Assembly: GCA_963753185.1 (NCBI GenBank)
Contig: CAVWBO010000007.1
Span: forward strand, 1,610,914 to 1,674,913
From: an uncultured Acidimicrobiia bacterium
Lineage (GTDB): Bacteria; Actinomycetota; Acidimicrobiia; Spongiisociales; UBA5794
Direction of reading: 5' to 3'
Length of the DNA stretch: 64,000 nt
Below, piece after piece: positions 6,586-14,948 of this stretch. A program made the translations under genes and the position numbers. A model generated the notes under the pieces. That model did not search any database. It saw nothing but the letters and a program-made list of their open reading frames with translations, and was not told the DNA's origin. How positions within the stretch are numbered: the stretch's first letter is position 1; every line of letters starts with the position of its first letter.

Positions 6586-9030
6586 TCAGCGCCTGCCCAT
6601 GAGGTTCGATCGGATGCGCTTGGCGCGTTCGAGCAGTCGGGACGGTCGATAGAGCGCCCTGACGCGCTCTGCTCGCGAGTATCGGGTCGTGAGGTGCTGC
6701 GCTGCACGGAGCCTCGCAGCGGACGCATCGTCCACGAGGTCGTCCGACTGGTCTTCGCCGTAGAGTGCCCGACCGTATACCGATGCGAGCGGTACGAAGG
6801 CGGTATCGATGGCCTTGGCAGCCTCGATTGGCGTCGCTGCGGGATCGACAGGCTCGCGAAGGTCGGTGAGGCGTTCGACGATGTCGGTCCACGCCGCAGT
6901 GATGTCGCCGTTGCGGAGCCGGGTGATCAGCCTTCGGCGACGAATCATCTTCACGGCAGGCCCCGTGACGGCAAGGAGGGTCGCGAGACCCGCTGCGGCG
7001 AGGGCGACGGGAAGCCATGACGGCAGGTTCCATCCCAGGGGTCCCGCATCCGAGCCTCCTCCAGCCGGAACGAATGGCGTATCGCGTTCGATGGGCGTGA
7101 ACCTCCCGTCCGGTCCGATCTGGCCACCTTCGGTATCGACGAATGTGGGATTCGGTATGTCGTCCACATAGTCCGCGGGTGAGAAGCCGAGTGCGGCCTC
7201 GATCGTCTCGTTCGCCGTCGGTGCCGAGAAGAGACGCCTCGGTGTCGGATCGAATGCCACCCACCCGTGGCTCGGGACCCAGAGCTCGACCCAGGCGTGG
7301 GCGTTGCGGTCCATCACCTGGACCGTCGTGTCGTTGATCCTCGTCCCCGGCGTGAATCCGAGGACGACGCGCGAAGGCACGCCGACCGCCCTCGCCATGA
7401 GCGCCATCGCAGTTGCGAACTGCTCGCAGTATCCCTGCCTGGCGTATGGGTTGTCCTCGTCGGCCAGCCATGCGTACACATCACTCGTCGTGTACTCGCC
7501 GGGGACGCGGTCGTTGTACACGAACTCACCGCTGTCGCGGAACCAGTTCTCGAGGGCGAGGCCCTTCTCGAAGTTCGTCGAGACGTTTCCGACGACGCCA
7601 GCGGCGAGGGCACCGAACCCGGCTCCGAGCTCTTCGGTCGGATACTCGAGCCAGAACTCCTCATCGGTCAGTTCCTGGGGCTCCGGCGTGACGGGGGAAT
7701 CGGGAACCGACGCGCCATTGTCGGTCGCAGCCGCGAAGAGGGGACTGAGCTCGCCAGTCGTCGTTCGAGCGAGTGCAGCGATCGTCGGCCCGTCGTAGAG
7801 CGGCATGTCCGCGCGCACGGAGTAGGTCATGCCCTCGTAGCTGATGTCACCCGGCAGCATGAGTGAGCCGTCGAGGCGGCGGATCCGCAGATCGTTCTGG
7901 TCGGTGCGGTTCTGCGCGATCACGGCATTCGGTGTGACCGGCGCAGGTAGCCAGGGCTGGGCGAGATTGTCGATTCGGATGTCTGCTCGAACGGGGACCG
8001 TCACCCCCCGATAGACCTGCTCGTCCTCGATCCACGGTTCCTCGTCGAGCGGGTAGATCCGGACTCGATCAGTGGACCATCGCCCGTTCACGTACACGTC
8101 GAGGGTGACCGTCCTGAAGCGGACCGATGAGGGGTCTGCCCCGCCGATCTCTGCACGGAAGAGGGGATTCGAGGTCTGGGCGATCAGCCCCGCACGGATG
8201 TCGGTGAAGGGGTTGTATGACACGGACCCCGAATACCCGTCCGAGTACCCAGCAGGTGACCTCCACGTGATGAGGCCATCACTGGGCACCCTCTCCCCGG
8301 CGACGGCAACGGTCGACAGCGACACGAAGACCACCGCCACCACCATGCCGACGATCGCCGCCGATGGCCTGCGTGTCGGTCGCGAAACCCCGTTGACTCG
8401 CTGCAGGCGACCGGATCCCGCGTCTCGCTCGTCCGCACGTATGGCAAGGAGCGACAGGGCGACGATGCCGACGAACACAGCGAGGTGTGCCATGCCCTTG
8501 GGACGCCGATCGATGATGACGAACTGGAGGGCGACGATCAGCGGCGTCAGCACTGCAACGAACGGACGGCCGTTGAGCAAGCCGGCGACGAGGAGGAATC
8601 CGAGGATCCAGAAGAGCGACGCCAGAAGCATCACCATACCGGGGACGGGACGAACAGGCTCCACCCCGAACCGGATGATCTCGAGCGCCCGCCCGAACTC
8701 GAACACCACGGCGTCCCAGGTGGCTGCTGTCGGCAGGATGGTCCACAGGGTGTCGGGAGCCATGAGCATCCCCGCCGTCAGGACGAACGCAGCCATATTG
8801 ACGATGACGACGACGATCGCGCTCGCCCGGTACGCGATCGCCGTCCATGTGATGCCCGCGCCGAGCAGGAAGGCGATGAGGATCGCCAGCTGCCACGGCG
8901 TGCCGCTCGTGGAGTCGCGCAGCAAGGACGACAACTCCCAGAACGCAAGCCCGACGGCTGCCGTGCCTGCTATCCAGCTGTAGCGGTAGACCATCCGTGC
9001 TCCATCGCGTTGCGCCATGCGCCCGCCCAC
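6586..9030 (-). CDS. transglutaminase-like protein (TgpA/DUF3488-type; N-terminal multi-TM region plus transglutaminase core)
   Basis: N-terminal hydrophobic region, with the transglutaminase core Cys motif GYCEQFATAMALMARAVGVPSRVVLGF in the C-terminal half. It sits downstream of the DUF58 and MoxR genes. The start may instead be an internal Met (8994). Confidence 0.75.
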   Translation of the reverse strand: MGGRMAQRDGARMVYRYSWIAGTAAVGLAFWELSSLLRDSTSGTPWQLAILIAFLLGAGITWTAIAYRASAIVVVIVNMAAFVLTAGMLMAPDTLWTILPTAATWDAVVFEFGRALEIIRFGVEPVRPVPGMVMLLASLFWILGFLLVAGLLNGRPFVAVLTPLIVALQFVIIDRRPKGMAHLAVFVGIVALSLLAIRADERDAGSGRLQRVNGVSRPTRRPSAAIVGMVVAVVFVSLSTVAVAGERVPSDGLITWRSPAGYSDGYSGSVSYNPFTDIRAGLIAQTSNPLFRAEIGGADPSSVRFRTVTLDVYVNGRWSTDRVRIYPLDEEPWIEDEQVYRGVTVPVRADIRIDNLAQPWLPAPVTPNAVIAQNRTDQNDLRIRRLDGSLMLPGDISYEGMTYSVRADMPLYDGPTIAALARTTTGELSPLFAAATDNGASVPDSPVTPEPQELTDEEFWLEYPTEELGAGFGALAAGVVGNVSTNFEKGLALENWFRDSGEFVYNDRVPGEYTTSDVYAWLADEDNPYARQGYCEQFATAMALMARAVGVPSRVVLGFTPGTRINDTTVQVMDRNAHAWVELWVPSHGWVAFDPTPRRLFSAPTANETIEAALGFSPADYVDDIPNPTFVDTEGGQIGPDGRFTPIERDTPFVPAGGGSDAGPLGWNLPSWLPVALAAAGLATLLAVTGPAVKMIRRRRLITRLRNGDITAAWTDIVERLTDLREPVDPAATPIEAAKAIDTAFVPLASVYGRALYGEDQSDDLVDDASAARLRAAQHLTTRYSRAERVRALYRPSRLLERAKRIRSNLMGRR

Positions 9031-10154
9031 GTTCCGTCTGGCGTCGTCCTCACCACGAACGCGCCGAGTCTGGCGAAGCCCATGATCGTGTCGTCGTCAC
9101 CCTCAGAAACGGAAAGTACAACGGTTCTGTAGAAATCCTGACCGAGGAGCCTGAACGAGGTGAGGTCGGCGTCGTCCGGCTTGCCCGTCACCATCACGAG
9201 GACACCGCCTGCCATGCCGGACCGCCGGAGCCTGCTGATCACGTGTCGCAGATCCAGCGAACGCACGGGACGGATCACGGCGAGCTCCTCCATCACCCCA
9301 CGGTACGCGTCCGGGTTCGCCACGACCGTTCCGTTCCCGTGTCCAGCCCACATCGTCGGCGTATAGCCGGCTCGGTACAGGTGGTTGAGCACCGATGCTG
9401 CTCCCCGAACCGACTGCTCGAATGACTCCGCGCTCGCGTGGGGCTCGACCCTCGGGTCGAGGAGGACGAAGGCCCGTGATTGCCACGGCATCTCGAGCTG
9501 CTTGATCATCAGTTCGTCCCTGCGCGCAGACGACGGCCAGTGCACCCTGCGCAGGTCATCGCCCTGGTGGTACTCGCGCAAGGTGTAGAAGTCCTCTCCA
9601 CCGCTGTGCCAGAACGCAGCTCGTGACGTGTTGATGGTCTGATCCTGGCCGCGACCTGTGGGGACACCGTCGAGGGTCTCAACCCTGGGATACACGACGA
9701 GTCGGCTCGACACCCCGAACCTCGCCGTCGATTCGACGAAGCCGAGCGGGTCACCGAGGCTCACCTTCGCAGGGCCGACCGTGTAGATGCCCCTTGGCCT
9801 GCACACCACCTCGTATCTCCCCGCCATCACGTCGTCAGGGCTGATCCGATCGGCCCCGAAGCGTGCAGCGCCGAGTCCGTGGACCCGATCCTCGACGGAG
9901 ACGCGGTAGATCCGTCGGCGCGACCGAACCGCGATGTCGACGAGTGCACGCTCCCCGTCGTGAAGCTGTACGGGGTTGATGTCACGCTCGAGGGAGAGGC
10001 GCGGAGTCGCCATTCGGACGTACGCCGAGCCGCCGAGCACCGCGGCGAGGAGGAAGGCCGACAGGGCGAGGAGGAGGTCCTCCCCGAACGCAGCCCAGAG
10101 GACGCCGAGGGCCATGGCCGCCCCGACGGCTGCCCAACCCCTCGTCGTGGGCAT
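8970..10154 (-). CDS. DUF58 domain protein (vWA-like, MoxR partner)
   Basis: Its ATGA start overlaps the MoxR stop. The sequence matches the DUF58 family (EDFYTLREYHQGDDLRRVHWPSSAR). Confidence 0.75.
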   Translation of the reverse strand: MPTTRGWAAVGAAMALGVLWAAFGEDLLLALSAFLLAAVLGGSAYVRMATPRLSLERDINPVQLHDGERALVDIAVRSRRRIYRVSVEDRVHGLGAARFGADRISPDDVMAGRYEVVCRPRGIYTVGPAKVSLGDPLGFVESTARFGVSSRLVVYPRVETLDGVPTGRGQDQTINTSRAAFWHSGGEDFYTLREYHQGDDLRRVHWPSSARRDELMIKQLEMPWQSRAFVLLDPRVEPHASAESFEQSVRGAASVLNHLYRAGYTPTMWAGHGNGTVVANPDAYRGVMEELAVIRPVRSLDLRHVISRLRRSGMAGGVLVMVTGKPDDADLTSFRLLGQDFYRTVVLSVSEGDDDTIMGFARLGAFVVRTTPDGTWAGAWRNAMEHGWSTATAG

Positions 10155-11125
10155 CAGGCCGTGACCCTCGTTCCGGGGACCGGTACGGAGGCTCGGACCT
10201 CGTCGAGAACGTCCACCACGGTCGTGCCCCGCATCTGGGCATCGGGCCTGACGATGAGCCTGTGGTTGAGCACGGGCTCGAGGATCGACTTCACGTCGTC
10301 AGGGCTCGCGTAGTCCCGACCATCGGCAGCGGCTATTGCCCTGGCTGCGCGTTGGAGGTACAGGGTTGCCCGTGGTGATGCACCGAGCAGGATGTCGACA
10401 TGCGACCGGGTGGCGGCTGCGATGTCGATGAGGTACCCGCGAAGGACATCGGCGACGTGGACGGATCGAGCGATGGACGACATCTTGACGACGTCCTCGG
10501 CGTGGACGACAGACTTGAGGTCGATGAAGCGACTTCCCCCGCCGTGCGTCTGGAGCATCTCGAGTTCCTTGCTGCGCTCGGGATAACCCATGGTCACGCG
10601 CATCATGAACCGGTCGAGTTGGGCCTCGGGGAGGGGATAGGTCCCCTCGTGCTCGATGGGATTCTGCGTCGCCACGACGATGAAGGGTTCCGAGAGCACG
10701 TGGGTTTCCCCGTCGATCGTGATCTGTCGTTCCTCCATGGCCTCGAGGAGTGCCGCCTGGGTCTTCGGGCTTGCACGGTTGATCTCATCGCCGAGTACGA
10801 CGTTCGCAAACACGGGGCCAGGCCGGAAGGTGAAGGTGGTGCGCTCGCGGTCCCAGACCGAGACTCCCGTGACGTCGCTCGGGAGGAGGTCGGGCGTGAA
10901 CTGGATCCTCTGGAACTCGCTGTCGATCGATCGTGCGAGCGCCTTGGCGAGCAGTGTCTTCCCGACGCCGGGGACGTCCTCGATCAGGATATGGCCTTCG
11001 GCGATGAGGCTCGAGACGACCAGTTCGATCGTCTCGCGTTTGCCCTGGATGGCGCGCTCGATGTTCGAGGTGATTGCTTCGAACTTCTCACCGAACCACG
11101 AAAGGTCGTCCTGCGACAGGGACAC
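10154..11125 (-). CDS. MoxR-family AAA+ ATPase
   Basis: Walker A motif GVPGVGKT, plus LLEAMEERQITIDG and VVATQNP, characteristic of MoxR. Confidence 0.85.
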   Translation of the reverse strand: MSLSQDDLSWFGEKFEAITSNIERAIQGKRETIELVVSSLIAEGHILIEDVPGVGKTLLAKALARSIDSEFQRIQFTPDLLPSDVTGVSVWDRERTTFTFRPGPVFANVVLGDEINRASPKTQAALLEAMEERQITIDGETHVLSEPFIVVATQNPIEHEGTYPLPEAQLDRFMMRVTMGYPERSKELEMLQTHGGGSRFIDLKSVVHAEDVVKMSSIARSVHVADVLRGYLIDIAAATRSHVDILLGASPRATLYLQRAARAIAAADGRDYASPDDVKSILEPVLNHRLIVRPDAQMRGTTVVDVLDEVRASVPVPGTRVTA

Positions 11126-11250
11126 ATTGCCTCCTTCATGTCCGTGCGGCTACCAGACGATACCCGCCCGGAGCCCGCTTGGCGACGGGTCGGCGATGCG
11201 ACCGCACACAGAGGCGTCATGGAGGAGCCGAACCACTAGCGTGGAACCCC

Positions 11251-11496
11251 ATGATCGAGCTCCGTTCGTTCGTCGCGGTTGCGATTCGGCCCTGGCTGTG
11301 GCTGACGGCGATCGGTGCCGTGTTCGCATTCGCACGGCGACGATGGTGGGCAGAGCCCCCGTTCCTCCCCATCCCCGACCGCGACGTCCTCGAATGGCGG
11401 GTGACTACTGCCTATGGGCGGTCCGATATGACTCTTGCCCCTGAGGACCTGCTCTCGTATCTTCGGTGGAGGAAGACAAGCCTGAAGAAGGGCTGA
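11251..11496 (+). CDS. small hypothetical membrane protein
   Basis: 82 aa with one TM helix (VAVAIRPWLWLTAIGAVFAF). Its stop lies 10 nt before the next ORF, which is in a different frame. Confidence 0.4.
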   Translation: MIELRSFVAVAIRPWLWLTAIGAVFAFARRRWWAEPPFLPIPDRDVLEWRVTTAYGRSDMTLAPEDLLSYLRWRKTSLKKG

Positions 11497-11506
11497 GGAG
11501 GCCAGG

Positions 11507-12463
11507 GTGAACGAACGCTCCCTGCAGGACGACCTGCTCCGGATCCCCGGCGTCGAGGGCGCCGAGGTGGAGGGGTCGGCAGACAAACCGGCAGGACTGC
11601 GGATACGGATCGCCGAGGGCGCCGATCAGGGTGCCGTCGGTGGCGCTATACGGCGCGTCCTGACCTCCCACGGTCTCGGCACCGATACGAGGCTGCCGGG
11701 AGAGCAGAACCATGGCGGCGTCGAGGCGGGATCGAGCGCACCTCGCGAGGAGGTGTCCGACGCCGTTCCCATCGCACGAAGCGCCGGCTCGACCGCCGAC
11801 ATGCCTGGTCAGGGTTCAGGAGTCGCCGTTGCGCCGGCCGAGGAGTCGCGAGACGCCGCCGTGATCGACCTCACCGATCGCGCGTCGACAGCCTCCGAGG
11901 AACGGCCGAATGGCCCTCAAGGGCAGGACATGCCACGGGCGGACGAGATCGAGGACATGGACGAGGTCGACGCGAATCAGCGCAGGACCGCCGCCGATGA
12001 ACTCGAAGCCGCGAATCCACCGGGGCCGCGGCCCGACGACAGGTTCCCCGAAGCGTGCGAGCGACAGCCTGGCGCCAACGACCGACCTGACCACGATCAC
12101 AGATCTGACGACAGTGAATCCACGGGAGGCTTCGGGGCCAGGCTCGCGAGCGTCGCCGTCCAGGAGGGTCGTGCCGGGATCGTAGTGACCGTGGCCGCAT
12201 CCGATGGAACCCAGATCCAGCAGGCGGCTGCATCGACCGAGGGAGGCGTCGAGTCGGCCGTTGTACGTGCGACGACTCGCCTCGCGATGCCAGGGGCACC
12301 AGACGCCACGGTGATCGAGATCGAAGATCGTCGGATCGAGGGCGTCGACATCGTGCTCATCGTGCTCGATGTGGACGGCGTCATGCATGCCGGGGCCGCC
12401 GTTGTCGGTGCAGGTCGCTCCTTCGCCCTCGGCAGGGCGACGTGGTCAGCCCTCACCCTGTGA
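11507..12463 (+). CDS. hypothetical protein with two ferredoxin/HMA-like end domains separated by a highly acidic disordered segment
   Basis: GTG start. The N-terminal LRIPGVEGAEVEG...LRIRIAEGADQGAVGGAIRRVL segment resembles an HMA/ACT-like fold without CxxC. The middle is D/E-rich low complexity. Confidence 0.4.
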   Translation: MNERSLQDDLLRIPGVEGAEVEGSADKPAGLRIRIAEGADQGAVGGAIRRVLTSHGLGTDTRLPGEQNHGGVEAGSSAPREEVSDAVPIARSAGSTADMPGQGSGVAVAPAEESRDAAVIDLTDRASTASEERPNGPQGQDMPRADEIEDMDEVDANQRRTAADELEAANPPGPRPDDRFPEACERQPGANDRPDHDHRSDDSESTGGFGARLASVAVQEGRAGIVVTVAASDGTQIQQAAASTEGGVESAVVRATTRLAMPGAPDATVIEIEDRRIEGVDIVLIVLDVDGVMHAGAAVVGAGRSFALGRATWSALTL

Positions 12464-12533
12464 ATCGGACGTCCTGAGCGCTGTCCCTCGTGTCCCTGGT
12501 TCCATCCAACGCCTGACGCGGTTCGTCAGCACG

Positions 12534-12624
12534 CCGTCCCTCAACCGGCCGTCCCTCAACCGGCCGTCCCTCAACCGGCCGTCCCTCAACCGGCCGTCCC
12601 TCAACCGGCCGTCCGTCAACCGGT
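12534..12624. repeat. tandem direct repeat, 15-bp unit (GCCGTCCCTCAACCG) x6, the last copy with one substitution
   Basis: Read directly from the sequence: ccgtccctcaaccgg repeated head-to-tail. It lies between the convergent 3' ends of the 11507..12463 and 12616..13131 genes. Confidence 0.9.
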
Positions 12625-13131
12625 GGGGGCGATCAGCTCCACCACGACGTTCCGACGCTCGTCGATCTCGGGCTCTGCAACCGACGGTGCGACGGGATGC
12701 TCCGCCTGTCCGGACAACCCGAAGGCCTCGCGGTATTCGGCGACCTTCGCAACCACAGCACGGACAACGAGCCTCGTGTGGTCGTCGTTGCCGTTCCTGA
12801 GGGTCTCGAGGTCGTCATCGTCGGTGGAAATGACGGTTGCACCCGCACGCCGGATGTCGACCAGCATGATCTCCTGGAGCATCTTGTCGGGTGAGAGGGA
12901 ATCGAGCCGTGCAATCACCACGGCATCGGCCGATCCGGATCGCACGAGCTCGAGGAGGGCCCGGAAGCCGGGACGGTCGAGCGGTGCCGCAGATGCGTGG
13001 TGATCCTGGCAGATGGCGACGATGTCGTTACCCGTGTCGAGCGCCCAACGACGAATGCGCTCACTCTGGGCGAACGCGGTGTCCGACTGTCCGCGCCCGG
13101 GTGCCTCCCGGACGTACCCGACGATTTTCAT
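12616..13131 (-). CDS. serine-recombinase (resolvase) N-terminal-domain-like protein, catalytic Ser apparently replaced; no HTH domain
   Basis: MKIVGYVREA...RPGFRALLELVRSGSADAVVIARLDSLSPD parallels the resolvase pattern GYARVS...RPGL..LL.....GD.LVV..LDRLGRS. The nucleophilic Ser and the LDRLGR arginines are not conserved. Confidence 0.45.
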   Translation of the reverse strand: MKIVGYVREAPGRGQSDTAFAQSERIRRWALDTGNDIVAICQDHHASAAPLDRPGFRALLELVRSGSADAVVIARLDSLSPDKMLQEIMLVDIRRAGATVISTDDDDLETLRNGNDDHTRLVVRAVVAKVAEYREAFGLSGQAEHPVAPSVAEPEIDERRNVVVELIAPTG

Positions 13132-13283
13132 GATGCCTTCCTAGGATCGATCGCAGTATCCCAGAGCTGCGATGCGTGGTCAATCACCAGCGTTGCGTGG
13201 TCGCAAGGCGGGGAGGCGGACCCGAGGCACTCGACCGGTCCGTCGGGAACCGCCACATCGATCCATTGCTACGATACCGGGCC

Positions 13284-13772
13284 GTGGCAAGGACGCTCGT
13301 GCTGAACGCAAGCAATGAGCCGCTTTCGGTGGTTCCCGCTCGACGCGGCGTCGTGCTCGTACTCGCAGGGACCGCCGACCTCGTCGCCCATCGAGGCGAG
13401 GTTTGGAGATCAGGGCGGATCTCGGTCGACGTGCCGAGCGTCGTGCGGCTCCGCCGCTACGTGTCGGTGCCCCACGCGAGGGCCATTCCGCTCAATCGGC
13501 GGGCGATCTTCGCTCGCGACGAACACCGCTGCCAATACTGCGGCGGATCTGCCGAGAACGTCGATCACGTGATTCCGCGGGTGCTCGGCGGCACGCACCG
13601 CTGGGACAACGTCGTCGCGGCTTGTCGCCGATGCAACACCCGAAAGGGAGGGCGCACCCCGACCGAGGCAGGTCTCCAGCTGAGGCGCCAACCCACCAAA
13701 CCGGGGCGATTCGATTGGGTGCACGTCGCGGCAGGCGATGCCCTCGATGCGGCGTGGCGACCCTTCCTGTGA
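13284..13772 (+). CDS. HNH endonuclease
   Basis: HNH motif CQYCGG...DHVIPRVLGG...NVVAACRRCNTRKG. The N-terminus (RTLVLNASNEPL) matches the conserved actinobacterial HNH family. The start was taken at GTG 13284. Confidence 0.7.
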   Translation: MARTLVLNASNEPLSVVPARRGVVLVLAGTADLVAHRGEVWRSGRISVDVPSVVRLRRYVSVPHARAIPLNRRAIFARDEHRCQYCGGSAENVDHVIPRVLGGTHRWDNVVAACRRCNTRKGGRTPTEAGLQLRRQPTKPGRFDWVHVAAGDALDAAWRPFL

Positions 13773-13799
13773 TCCGCACGCGCCCCGGAGGCCGGCGCA

Positions 13800-14312
13800 C
13801 TACCGGATGACCAGAACCGGCAACGGGGAGCGACGTACGAGTTTCGCTCCCGTCGAGCCGAGCAGACCCTGGAACGCCCCGTGTCCGTGCGAACCGACCA
13901 CGATGACATCTGCCTCCAGCTCGTCGGCGAGGGCCAGGAGGGTGTCCTCGACCTCATCACCTTCGCGAACGGTGGACGTCGCCGTTCCGCCGCGAAGCCG
14001 AATCGCCTCGACCACCGGACGGCAGAACTCGATGCGCTTGTCACCGAGGTACTGATCGACGAGGGCATCGTCGCCGGGGAAGCTCCTCTCGAAGTGTGAT
14101 TCGACCTTCGGCGCACCGACGTACTCGGCATCGGTCTCAACCGAGACAGGGGGTTGGTCGCCGTATTGGAGCCGCAGCTCCTGGACGAGCCGTCTCGGCA
14201 CCCGCACGACGGTTGCCACCGTCGTCGTCCCCGCCTCGCCGGCGAGCGCCACCGAGAAGTCGGCGGCCTTGTCGATGTCCATCGATCCGTCCGTTGCAAC
14301 AAGCACGTGCAT
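13800..14312 (-). CDS. universal stress protein (UspA family)
   Basis: 170 aa: MHVLVATDGS...ADVIVVGSHGHGAFQGLLGSTGAKLV. Only the C-terminal part of the long track ORF 13800..15014 is coding. Confidence 0.75.
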   Translation of the reverse strand: MHVLVATDGSMDIDKAADFSVALAGEAGTTTVATVVRVPRRLVQELRLQYGDQPPVSVETDAEYVGAPKVESHFERSFPGDDALVDQYLGDKRIEFCRPVVEAIRLRGGTATSTVREGDEVEDTLLALADELEADVIVVGSHGHGAFQGLLGSTGAKLVRRSPLPVLVIR

Positions 14313-14411: not shown

Positions 14412-14486
14412 TGGAGGTTCGGTGGGGTTCTGGGGGAAATGATGTTGACAAGTGGGAGATGGTGGGCCATAGTGGGGCGCCGTGGG
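14412..14486 (+). promoter_or_regulatory. MraZ operator: array of GTGGG-type boxes at 10-bp periodicity overlapping a putative mra promoter (-35 TTGACA 14445-14450, -10 CATAGT about 14468)
   Basis: GTGGG occurs at 14452, 14462, 14472 and 14482 with exact 10-bp spacing. Degenerate copies are at 14412, 14422 and 14432. The array is immediately upstream of mraZ. Confidence 0.65.
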
Positions 14487-14516
14487 AGATGTCGGAGATG
14501 ATGGAGACGTCGAAAG

Positions 14517-14948
14517 ATGTTCCTTGGGGAATACATGCACTCGCTCGACGAGAAGGGTCGAGTCGTGATGCCGTCCAAGTTCCGAGCGGAACTTGCGACG
14601 GGCTGCGTGCTGACCAAGGGACAGGAACGTTGTCTGTACGTGTTTCCGCAGGACCGGTGGGACGAGGAGGCAGCTGCCGTCCTCAGGCTCCCGCGCACCG
14701 ATCGGCGGGCCAGGAACTACTCGCGTTCGTTCTTCGCCTCGGCATCGGATCAGAGCCTCGACCGGGCAGGTCGGTGTCAGATCCCCGAGCCGTTGCGCGG
14801 GTACGCGGGACTGACGAAGGACGTCACGGTGGTCGGCGTCGCGGACCGGATCGAGATCTGGGATTCGACGACCTGGAGGGAGGTCGCCACCGTGGCGGAC
14901 GACTACTACGCCGACATCGAGGAGGTGTTGTCGGAGGGCGGCATTTGA
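14517..14948 (+). CDS. mraZ: transcriptional regulator MraZ
   Basis: MFLGEYMHSLDEKGRVVMPSKFR; two MraZ half-domains; first gene of the dcw cluster. Confidence 0.9.
   Translation: MFLGEYMHSLDEKGRVVMPSKFRAELATGCVLTKGQERCLYVFPQDRWDEEAAAVLRLPRTDRRARNYSRSFFASASDQSLDRAGRCQIPEPLRGYAGLTKDVTVVGVADRIEIWDSTTWREVATVADDYYADIEEVLSEGGI

Follow-up and report, generated by a model that had tools for sequence, protein, structure and literature searches.

A serine-recombinase fold without a recombinase active site in a conserved gene block of Acidimicrobiia

The locus

The DNA considered here is a stretch of 64,000 nucleotides (the window) from an uncultured Acidimicrobiia bacterium (assembly GCA_963753185.1, contig CAVWBO010000007.1), an actinobacterial chromosome segment with a G+C content of 64-67%. 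The section of interest, 2.6 kb in length, lies between the gene of a MoxR ATPase and that of a universal stress protein (Usp). Its central gene (positions 12616-13131, minus strand) codes for a protein of 171 amino acid residues with the catalytic domain of serine recombinases, which is called ResL below. Two genes on the plus strand precede it: mem82, a small open reading frame (ORF) for a basic protein of 81 residues rich in Trp and Arg (11251-11496), and acid318, which codes for an acidic two-domain protein of 318 residues (11507-12463). A 15-nt tandem repeat (12533-12623) is located between acid318 and ResL. On the other side of ResL are its promoter region (13155-13202, minus strand) and the gene of a stand-alone HNH endonuclease of 162 residues (13284-13772, plus strand). 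Pfam matches in the block and its flanks are to Resolvase, HNH/HNH_5, Usp, MoxR/AAA_3 and MraZ. All features listed in an initial annotation of this DNA, made from the sequence alone, are present, and their coordinates are right apart from the start of the HNH gene.

Fold and active site of ResL

ResL is matched by the Pfam profile PF00239 with E=2.1e-15 and a score of 57.6 bits (cutoff 23.3). The AlphaFold2 model, for which 119 homologues were present in the alignment, has a predicted local distance difference test (pLDDT) value of 84.9. It consists of four β-α units and a long helix E (residues 118-137), and the core together with helix E spans residues 1-137. Beyond residue 140 the modelled chain is disordered, with pLDDT values of 41-61 for residues 140-171, and contains no helix-turn-helix. 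When the model was compared with the PDB by Foldseek, the matches ranked 1-46 were all catalytic domains of serine recombinases, among them those of TP901-1 integrase, the IS607-type TnpA, phiC31, Bxb1, Sin, Tn3 and gamma-delta resolvase.

For the numbering of residues, ResL was aligned with its nearest active relatives and with gamma-delta resolvase. The motif YVREA stands in ResL where Y-x-R-x-S is expected, and the position of the nucleophile (S10 of gamma-delta resolvase) is occupied by Ala. Among 47 diverse ResL orthologues this position holds Thr in 19, Ala in 12, Ser in 6, Leu in 5, Ile in 2 and single other residues in the remainder. The second motif is LDSLSPD in place of the expected LDRLGRD. 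In the family it takes the form L-[SDA]-[AS]-L-S-P-D, in which R68 is replaced by Ala or Ser and R71 by Pro, while D72 is retained. The equivalents of S39 and G40 are gone as well. The pocket residues that ResL retains are Y6, R8 and the equivalents of Q19, D36, R45 and D72. Seventeen positions are invariant or nearly so across the 47 orthologues; Y6, R8 and D43 are invariant, and R53 is conserved in 96%. No member of the family, in which all proteins have 130-190 residues, carries a DNA-binding domain, and a repeat search found no recombination sites near ResL.

In its fold and its ancestry ResL belongs with the catalytic domains of serine recombinases, yet it lacks what defines the enzyme family, namely the serine, R68 and R71, the DNA-binding domain and the recombination sites. 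Because the nucleophilic serine is gone, no covalent phosphoserine intermediate should be possible, and as judged from the sequence this mechanism is excluded and ResL is not a recombinase. An alternative nucleophile appears very unlikely, since none of the candidate residues combines reactivity with conservation in the whole family. ResL is best read as an exapted, non-catalytic protein. The initial annotation had described a resolvase-like protein without the serine, the LDRLGR arginines and a helix-turn-helix, and this description is borne out by the Pfam match of 12616-13131, by the model with its structural matches, gamma-delta resolvase included, and by the residue alignments. Its suggestion of a domesticated or regulatory recombinase fold, and not an active resolvase, is supported by the fold in combination with the lost catalytic residues.

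A metal site formed by C41, H44, H45 and H118, which are invariant in close relatives, was also considered and rejected. The histidines are only 47-62% conserved in the wider set, and C41, invariant in the main clade, is replaced by Phe in divergent members.

Gene order, selection and ancestry

A pattern scan of one genome per species gave 50 ResL loci, all from metagenome-assembled genomes of Acidimicrobiia. The loci of relatives are numbered from L001 onward, and L001-L003 are those of the 91-93% relatives. One locus, L006 (CAXMSN010000040.1), is labelled as an "uncultured Kiloniellales bacterium" (Alphaproteobacteria); it carries the whole block at 58-79% protein identity and is probably mis-binned.

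The left anchor of the conserved block is the MoxR AAA+ ATPase (10154-11125, minus strand; PF07726, E=8.7e-67; synteny), upstream of which lie the genes of a DUF58 protein (8970-10154, minus strand) and a transglutaminase-like protein (6586-9030, minus strand). The neighbour on the other side is Usp, with 170 residues (13800-14312, minus strand; PF00582, E=6.5e-16), which is syntenic in relatives. The right anchor, identified by the Pfam MraZ match and by synteny, is mraZ (14517-14948, plus strand), the start of the dcw cluster, and rsmH and the rest of this cluster follow downstream. A tblastn comparison with 12 window proteins gave the gene order transglutaminase-DUF58-MoxR, mem82-acid318, ResL, HNH (in part of the loci), Usp and MraZ-RsmH-penicillin-binding protein. 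Relatives whose ResL is only 36% identical still have this order, and ResL is found between MoxR and MraZ in all 28 loci that hold both anchors. The identity of ResL to the window protein tracks that of MoxR, DUF58, MraZ, RsmH, the penicillin-binding protein and HNH, with Spearman coefficients of 0.74-0.91.

ResL is under strong purifying selection. The ratio of nonsynonymous to synonymous substitution rates (dN/dS) is 0.05-0.09 against the three 91-93% relatives, and none of the 50+ loci has a disrupted reading frame. The G+C content of the block, 0.64-0.70, is the same as that of its flanks. No tRNA gene is located in positions 1-30000 of the window, no second recombinase was found in the window, and the direct repeats flanking the block are only short, chance-level matches. 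PADLOC applied to the window proteins yielded only generic HNH matches and no defence system. The ResL family was not found on viral contigs, where all matches are large serine integrases of the canonical kind, which have the motifs YVRLS and RLDRLVR.

The 2.6-kb stretch had been described as a non-housekeeping insertion that interrupts otherwise syntenic blocks. However, the block is itself syntenic in every relative examined, its divergence follows that of its neighbours, and it has no compositional or mobile-element signature. The initial annotation had itself named conservation of the block at this position throughout the relatives as a point that would weaken its case, and such conservation is what the synteny comparison found. 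The stretch, which separates the MoxR-DUF58-transglutaminase operon from the mraZ/dcw cluster, is probably an old part of the Acidimicrobiia chromosome that has been passed down vertically, made up of lineage-specific conserved core genes and not of foreign DNA. This degree of confidence applies to the explanation as a whole; the adaptor and docking part of it, presented below, is much less certain.

A profile search of the whole library gave about 55 clusters (at 50% identity) of ResL proteins that consist of the domain only. Below these clusters come, at lower profile scores, ordinary recombinases of 220-400 residues in which the serine and the arginines are present; a Gordonia "recombinase family protein" is one of them. 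Actinobacterial recombinases with YVRVST and RLDRLARD motifs and a C-terminal helix-turn-helix are the likely ancestors of ResL, to judge from these matches.

Some local changes occur within this otherwise frozen order of genes. In 4 of 40 loci (L006, L033, L048 and L049) only ResL has the opposite orientation, and in at least seven (L039-L044, L060 and L061) only HNH. These flips apparently represent several independent events. An invertible segment around ResL was considered and rejected: the flipped genes are flanked only by weak inverted repeats, with 74-88% matches over 12-22 nt. The distance from MoxR to MraZ ranges from 2.5 to 7.0 kb across the loci, and the window, with 3.4 kb, is compact. 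Since the segment from Usp to mraZ is longer by about 3 kb in five loci (L011, L014, L018, L019 and L031), true lineage-specific insertions do exist in this neighbourhood; they are absent from the window.

The ResL promoter and the tandem repeat

The putative promoter of ResL consists of a -35 box TTGACC (13183-13178), a 17-nt spacer and a TG-extended -10 box GATACT ending at 13155. A promoter scan gave two sites against 0.3 expected. A Shine-Dalgarno sequence, AGGAAGG, is located directly 5' of the ATG codon. Relatives with as little as 54-58% ResL identity keep this layout, which points to a conserved sigma-70-type promoter of its own. Because of this promoter and the Shine-Dalgarno sequence, ResL would be expressed independently.

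Two copies of TGCGTGGTC (GACCACGCA in the ResL sense) are found 21 nt apart at 13173-13181 and 13194-13202. One copy of the GACCAC element overlaps the -35 box and the other lies upstream of it, and the window shows no enrichment of the 9-mer outside this region. The GACCAC/GTGGTC motif is present as two direct copies at this spacing in the window and in most relatives, while L006 (5914-5941) has four tandem CGTGGTC copies in the opposite orientation. The motif may be an operator for a regulator. Control of the ResL promoter by MraZ was considered and rejected: the mraZ boxes are GTGGG with a period of 10-11 nt, whereas the ResL repeats have another sequence and lie 21 nt apart.

The repeat downstream of ResL has 6.1 copies (Tandem Repeats Finder score 175, 98% matches). 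Its unit is GCCGTCCCTCAACCG on the plus strand and CCGGTTGAGGGACGG in the ResL sense, with an in-frame TGA in every unit. The first unit in the ResL sense, which is the last on the plus strand, comprises the final two codons and the stop codon of ResL. The array was called iteron-like in the initial annotation, but it is not conserved among relatives. Against six copies here there are about two in L001 and L002 and 2.1 in L003 (Tandem Repeats Finder) at the same position, and the repeat is absent from more distant relatives. No significant RNA fold (z = -1.0) and no Rfam match were found in the repeat region. The array is evidently a lineage-specific slippage expansion around the ResL stop codon in the convergent spacer, with no conserved role. 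Other lineages have unrelated repeat arrays in the ResL-acid318 spacer. In L016 (6217-6728) it has grown to about 490 nt, with tandem repeats CAGACAG and GGAGAAC and duplicated segments that include a second acid318 3' end. Because of the window array and the expansion in L016, this spacer is regarded as a repeat hot spot.

The best inverted repeat of the region (12316-12338 and 12648-12670, 23 nt, 87% complementary) arises from similar peptides on opposite strands, IEIEDRRIE in acid318 and EIDERRN in the ResL tail. It is probably a chance match, because the ResL part is not conserved in relatives.

The mem82 and acid318 proteins

In mem82 the residues P14 and W17 and the motifs PFLPxPD, WRxxTAYG and YLxWR are conserved. 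It is the first gene of a two-gene operon divergent from moxR, and its orthologue adjoins MoxR in nearly all loci, including those of the clade without acid318. The "small membrane protein" of the initial annotation is present as an ORF; the membrane label is doubtful, as the N-terminal helix is hydrophobic only in the subclade of the window and is a charged amphipathic helix in distant orthologues. Neither mem82 nor acid318 has a match in Pfam, NCBIfam, PADLOC or PHROGs.

The proposal that mem82 and acid318 are one split gene does not hold. The two are separate ORFs in about 40 relatives, in relative frames 0, +1 and +2, and their junction in these genomes is either a gap of 10-36 nt with a GGAGG-type Shine-Dalgarno sequence and a GTG codon or an ATGA overlap of stop and start. 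They are predicted from this arrangement to be a translationally coupled pair, and not the product of a frameshift.

The model of acid318 has an α-β-β-α N-domain (residues 1-55) and a (β-β-β-α)x2 C-domain (residues 212-318, pLDDT >95). Between them is an acidic linker of about 150 residues (about 60-210), which is disordered in the model and carries the motif AVIDLTD. This agrees with the acidic two-domain protein with a D/E-rich linker described in the initial annotation. The ferredoxin- or HMA-like ends that it also described were not recovered, since no profile matches, the model shows another topology than the β-α-β-β-α-β of such domains, and the modelled C-domain matches the regulatory fold of LeuA and citramalate synthase (LeuA_dimer). 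A Pfam search of acid318 gave no match at E<=1 to either HMA or LeuA_dimer (PF08502), and the Cys motif sought as a GMxCxxC metal site is absent from the N-domain.

The HNH endonuclease

The HNH protein is matched by PF01844 and PF14279 (E=1.9e-13 and 6.8e-13). Its ββα-Me core has intact CQYC, DH, WDN and CRRCN motifs and is preceded by an N-terminal domain of about 70 residues. Among sequences of solved structure, those closest to it come from the HNH domains of IscB and Cas9, with E=6e-10 to 1e-5 for solved chains, and phrog_16726 is matched with E=9e-29. Homologue alignments begin at residues 35-39 of the 198-residue ORF, gene callers on identical contigs give 157 residues, and a conserved TACGAT -10 box lies 7-9 nt 5' of the conserved start. 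The gene is most likely a 162-residue ORF on a leaderless mRNA, starting with GTG at 13284. The stand-alone nuclease gene with intact motifs that the initial annotation reported is confirmed, but its start is placed at 13284 and not at 13176.

HNH shares a divergent control region of about 150 bp with ResL. It adjoins ResL in 33 of the 44 loci covering that side and is missing in the other 11, where ResL is intact. HNH is an intact, separately transcribed, frequent but dispensable neighbour of ResL.

Two observations concern the flanking genes. The DUF58 and transglutaminase-like ORFs overlap by 61 nt (8970-9030), and an overlap of about 45-60 nt is likewise seen in relatives; it could be genuine or point to a downstream start of the transglutaminase-like gene. 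The mraZ promoter, TTGACA-17-CATAGT (14445-14473, plus strand; sequence scan), is overlapped and trailed by four GTGGG boxes with a period of 10-11 nt (14445-14495): AGTGGGAGAT GGTGGGCCAT AGTGGGGCGCC GTGGGAG. This arrangement would be the layout expected for autoregulation by MraZ.

The ResL tail and possible partners

The tail of ResL is an acidic linker followed by the peptide VVVELI (residues 162-167), with the family form [VIL]3-[EQRK]-[LI]-[IVL]. Wherever ResL bears the tail and the flanking sequence is long enough, an acid318 homologue adjoins ResL, usually stop-to-stop at a distance of 2-100 nt. In the very divergent loci L060-L064, the 222-residue neighbours of ResL are acid318 homologues according to hhalign. 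Five ResL proteins of 137-141 residues (L049, L052, L053/54, L055 and L056) are tail-less, and acid318 is absent there. These loci retain HNH, mem82 and/or MoxR, with mem82 in L052-L056.

Since the tail and acid318 co-occur and are co-absent, we tentatively suggest that ResL docks onto acid318 through the peptide of its tail and acts as a non-catalytic, probably dimeric adaptor. The retention of helix E in the model suggests that dimerisation is retained, and with half of the phosphate pocket kept, the binding of an anionic ligand may persist. The hydrophobic VVVELI-type strand at the end of the acidic tail would dock onto acid318, the C-domain of which has a predicted ligand-binding fold of the LeuA regulatory type. 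The AVIDLTD motif of the acid318 linker, which resembles a SUMO-interaction motif, was considered as the counterpart of the tail and rejected, as it is not conserved in distant acid318 homologues. A broader and more speculative proposal is that ResL, acid318 and mem82, with HNH as a frequent fourth member, form an Acidimicrobiia-specific module in which a dead recombinase is tethered to a ligand-sensing protein of LeuA fold. Such a module would act close to the MoxR chaperone system or the dcw cluster, either of which might be its target. It would be the first clear case of a serine-recombinase catalytic domain exapted to a cellular, non-recombination role.

Several points weigh against this interpretation. 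The tail-less ResL proteins look like one clade, and the link between the tail and acid318 is statistically weak, as it probably reflects a single co-loss event. The ResL tail and the acid318 linker have low confidence in the models. Of the neighbours, HNH follows the divergence of ResL most closely (rho 0.91), and the two genes stay together even in the clade without acid318, so that the true partner could be HNH. A shared function is not proved by conserved gene order alone. In addition, the relatives are all metagenome-assembled genomes picked by peptide patterns, and the true spread of the family, for example among cultured Acidimicrobiales, may differ from that in this sample.

It is possible, though not the outcome one would bet on, that the neighbours are functionally unrelated and have been frozen in place by chance and operon boundaries, with the function of ResL unconnected to mem82, acid318 and HNH. 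The gene of ResL, with a promoter of its own, converges on acid318 and diverges from HNH; ResL flips in 4 loci and HNH in 7 with no loss of the genes, and the folds suggest no mechanistic link. However, such independence would not account for the co-absence of the tail and acid318, nor for an adjacency that outlasts inversions and about 60% sequence divergence.

If HNH and not acid318 is the partner, ResL could serve a housekeeping nuclease as a non-catalytic subunit that binds DNA structures or has a regulatory part, for example in DNA repair or processing. Besides the correlation and the retained pair mentioned above, the adjacency of the two genes survives flips of either, they have the divergent control region in common, and the catalytic motifs of HNH are intact. 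We regard this partnership as a serious rival, though an unlikely one, since HNH is gone from 11 of the 44 loci that cover this side, with ResL intact, and the two genes have separate promoters. Moreover, HNH shows only a generic HNH domain match and no known two-component system, and ResL has no evident DNA-binding surface beyond its partial pocket.

It is highly improbable that ResL is still an active recombinase or nuclease with an unorthodox nucleophile (Thr10, Cys41 or Tyr6). Thr is the commonest residue at position 10 and Ser occurs there in some orthologues, while Y6, R8, D43 and R53, and in the main clade C41, are conserved. However, non-nucleophilic residues are also found at position 10, including the Ala of the window; the R68 and R71 equivalents needed by known enzymes are lost; Cys41 becomes Phe in divergent members; and neither a DNA-binding domain nor recombination sites are present. 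That the block was inserted recently or is a genomic island, its horizontally acquired cargo being a degenerate resolvase and a homing-type HNH nuclease, is just as improbable. Resolvase and HNH domains are typical of mobile elements, weak PHROG matches to integrase, invertase and HNH families were obtained, and the tandem repeat adjoins the resolvase-like gene; against this stand the constant gene order down to 36% identity, divergence that tracks the neighbours with dN/dS of about 0.05, the uniform composition, the lack of tRNA genes and of flanking repeats above chance level, and the absence of the family from viral contigs. A functionless, decaying pseudogene relic, as the loss of the catalytic residues and the C-terminal domain might suggest, can practically be dismissed in view of the low dN/dS, the 17 near-invariant positions, the conserved promoter and Shine-Dalgarno sequence and the intact frame in all loci.

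Comparison with known systems

Databases label the ResL family "recombinase family protein" or "DNA invertase Pin-like". With these labels, each Acidimicrobiia genome that has a ResL gene is wrongly marked as having a mobile element or an invertible switch next to its cell-division cluster, and the recognition of ResL as a dead, vertically inherited branch corrects them. The ResL tail and the protein with the LeuA regulatory fold offer a concrete, testable pairing.

The stand-alone HNH endonucleases (HNH_5/HNH; IscB, Cas9; Gmet_0936, PDB code 4h9d) and the HNH protein of the window have the CxxC...DH...N...CxxC core in common. The window protein differs in its extra N-terminal domain of about 70 residues and in its chromosomal, syntenic location. 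NCBIfam and PADLOC do not place it in any RNA-guided or defence system. The C-domain of acid318 is compared with the C-terminal regulatory domain of LeuA and citramalate synthase, to which it is only 15-16% identical, without a Pfam LeuA_dimer match. It is joined to a small N-domain by the acidic disordered linker of about 150 residues, and not to a TIM-barrel synthase.

The small serine recombinases (gamma-delta/Tn3 resolvase, Hin/Gin/Pin and the actinobacterial group of about 240 residues, for example Gordonia P0302) have the catalytic fold and helix E in common with ResL. The QE motif after the LDRL region and the DPxRxxxR motif in helix E of the actinobacterial subgroup are also found in ResL. 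In contrast to these enzymes, ResL has no Ser10, S39/G40, R68/R71 or helix-turn-helix, and has an acidic disordered tail with a VVVELI-type peptide. It is also single-copy, chromosomally fixed and vertically inherited, without recombination sites or a mobile context.

The best structural matches of ResL are the IS607-family TnpA and the large serine integrases (TP901-1, phiC31, Bxb1): TP901-1 integrase is the top match (3bvp, E=2.3e-7), followed by 6dgc (E=5e-7) and 4bqq/9rah (E of about 1e-6). Their sequence identity with ResL is only 15-22%. These proteins keep the serine and carry DNA-binding domains, either MerR-like at the N-terminus or a recombinase domain and zinc ribbon at the C-terminus, while ResL has neither. 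A search of the PDB sequences with the ResL family profile gave no solved recombinase and only spurious designed TIM barrels.

In Bacillus, the gene of YneB is a chromosomal resolvase-like gene near a cell-division or SOS-related locus. The match of ResL to the YneB-type family (NCBIfam NF049883) is marginal (E=0.01; score 15 bits, cutoff 175), and the phylum and gene context are different; ResL is not a member. NCBIfam gave only sub-threshold matches of ResL, to XisF, IS607, YneB and CcrA, and no curated family in it covers this protein. In the literature we found no description of a chromosomally fixed serine-recombinase derivative that consists of the domain only and lacks the serine. ResL is an uncharacterised branch of pseudo-recombinases, dead and chromosomally fixed, which is kept for some other job, and it is a naturally occurring case in which the catalytic domain of a serine recombinase has been retained for a non-catalytic purpose.

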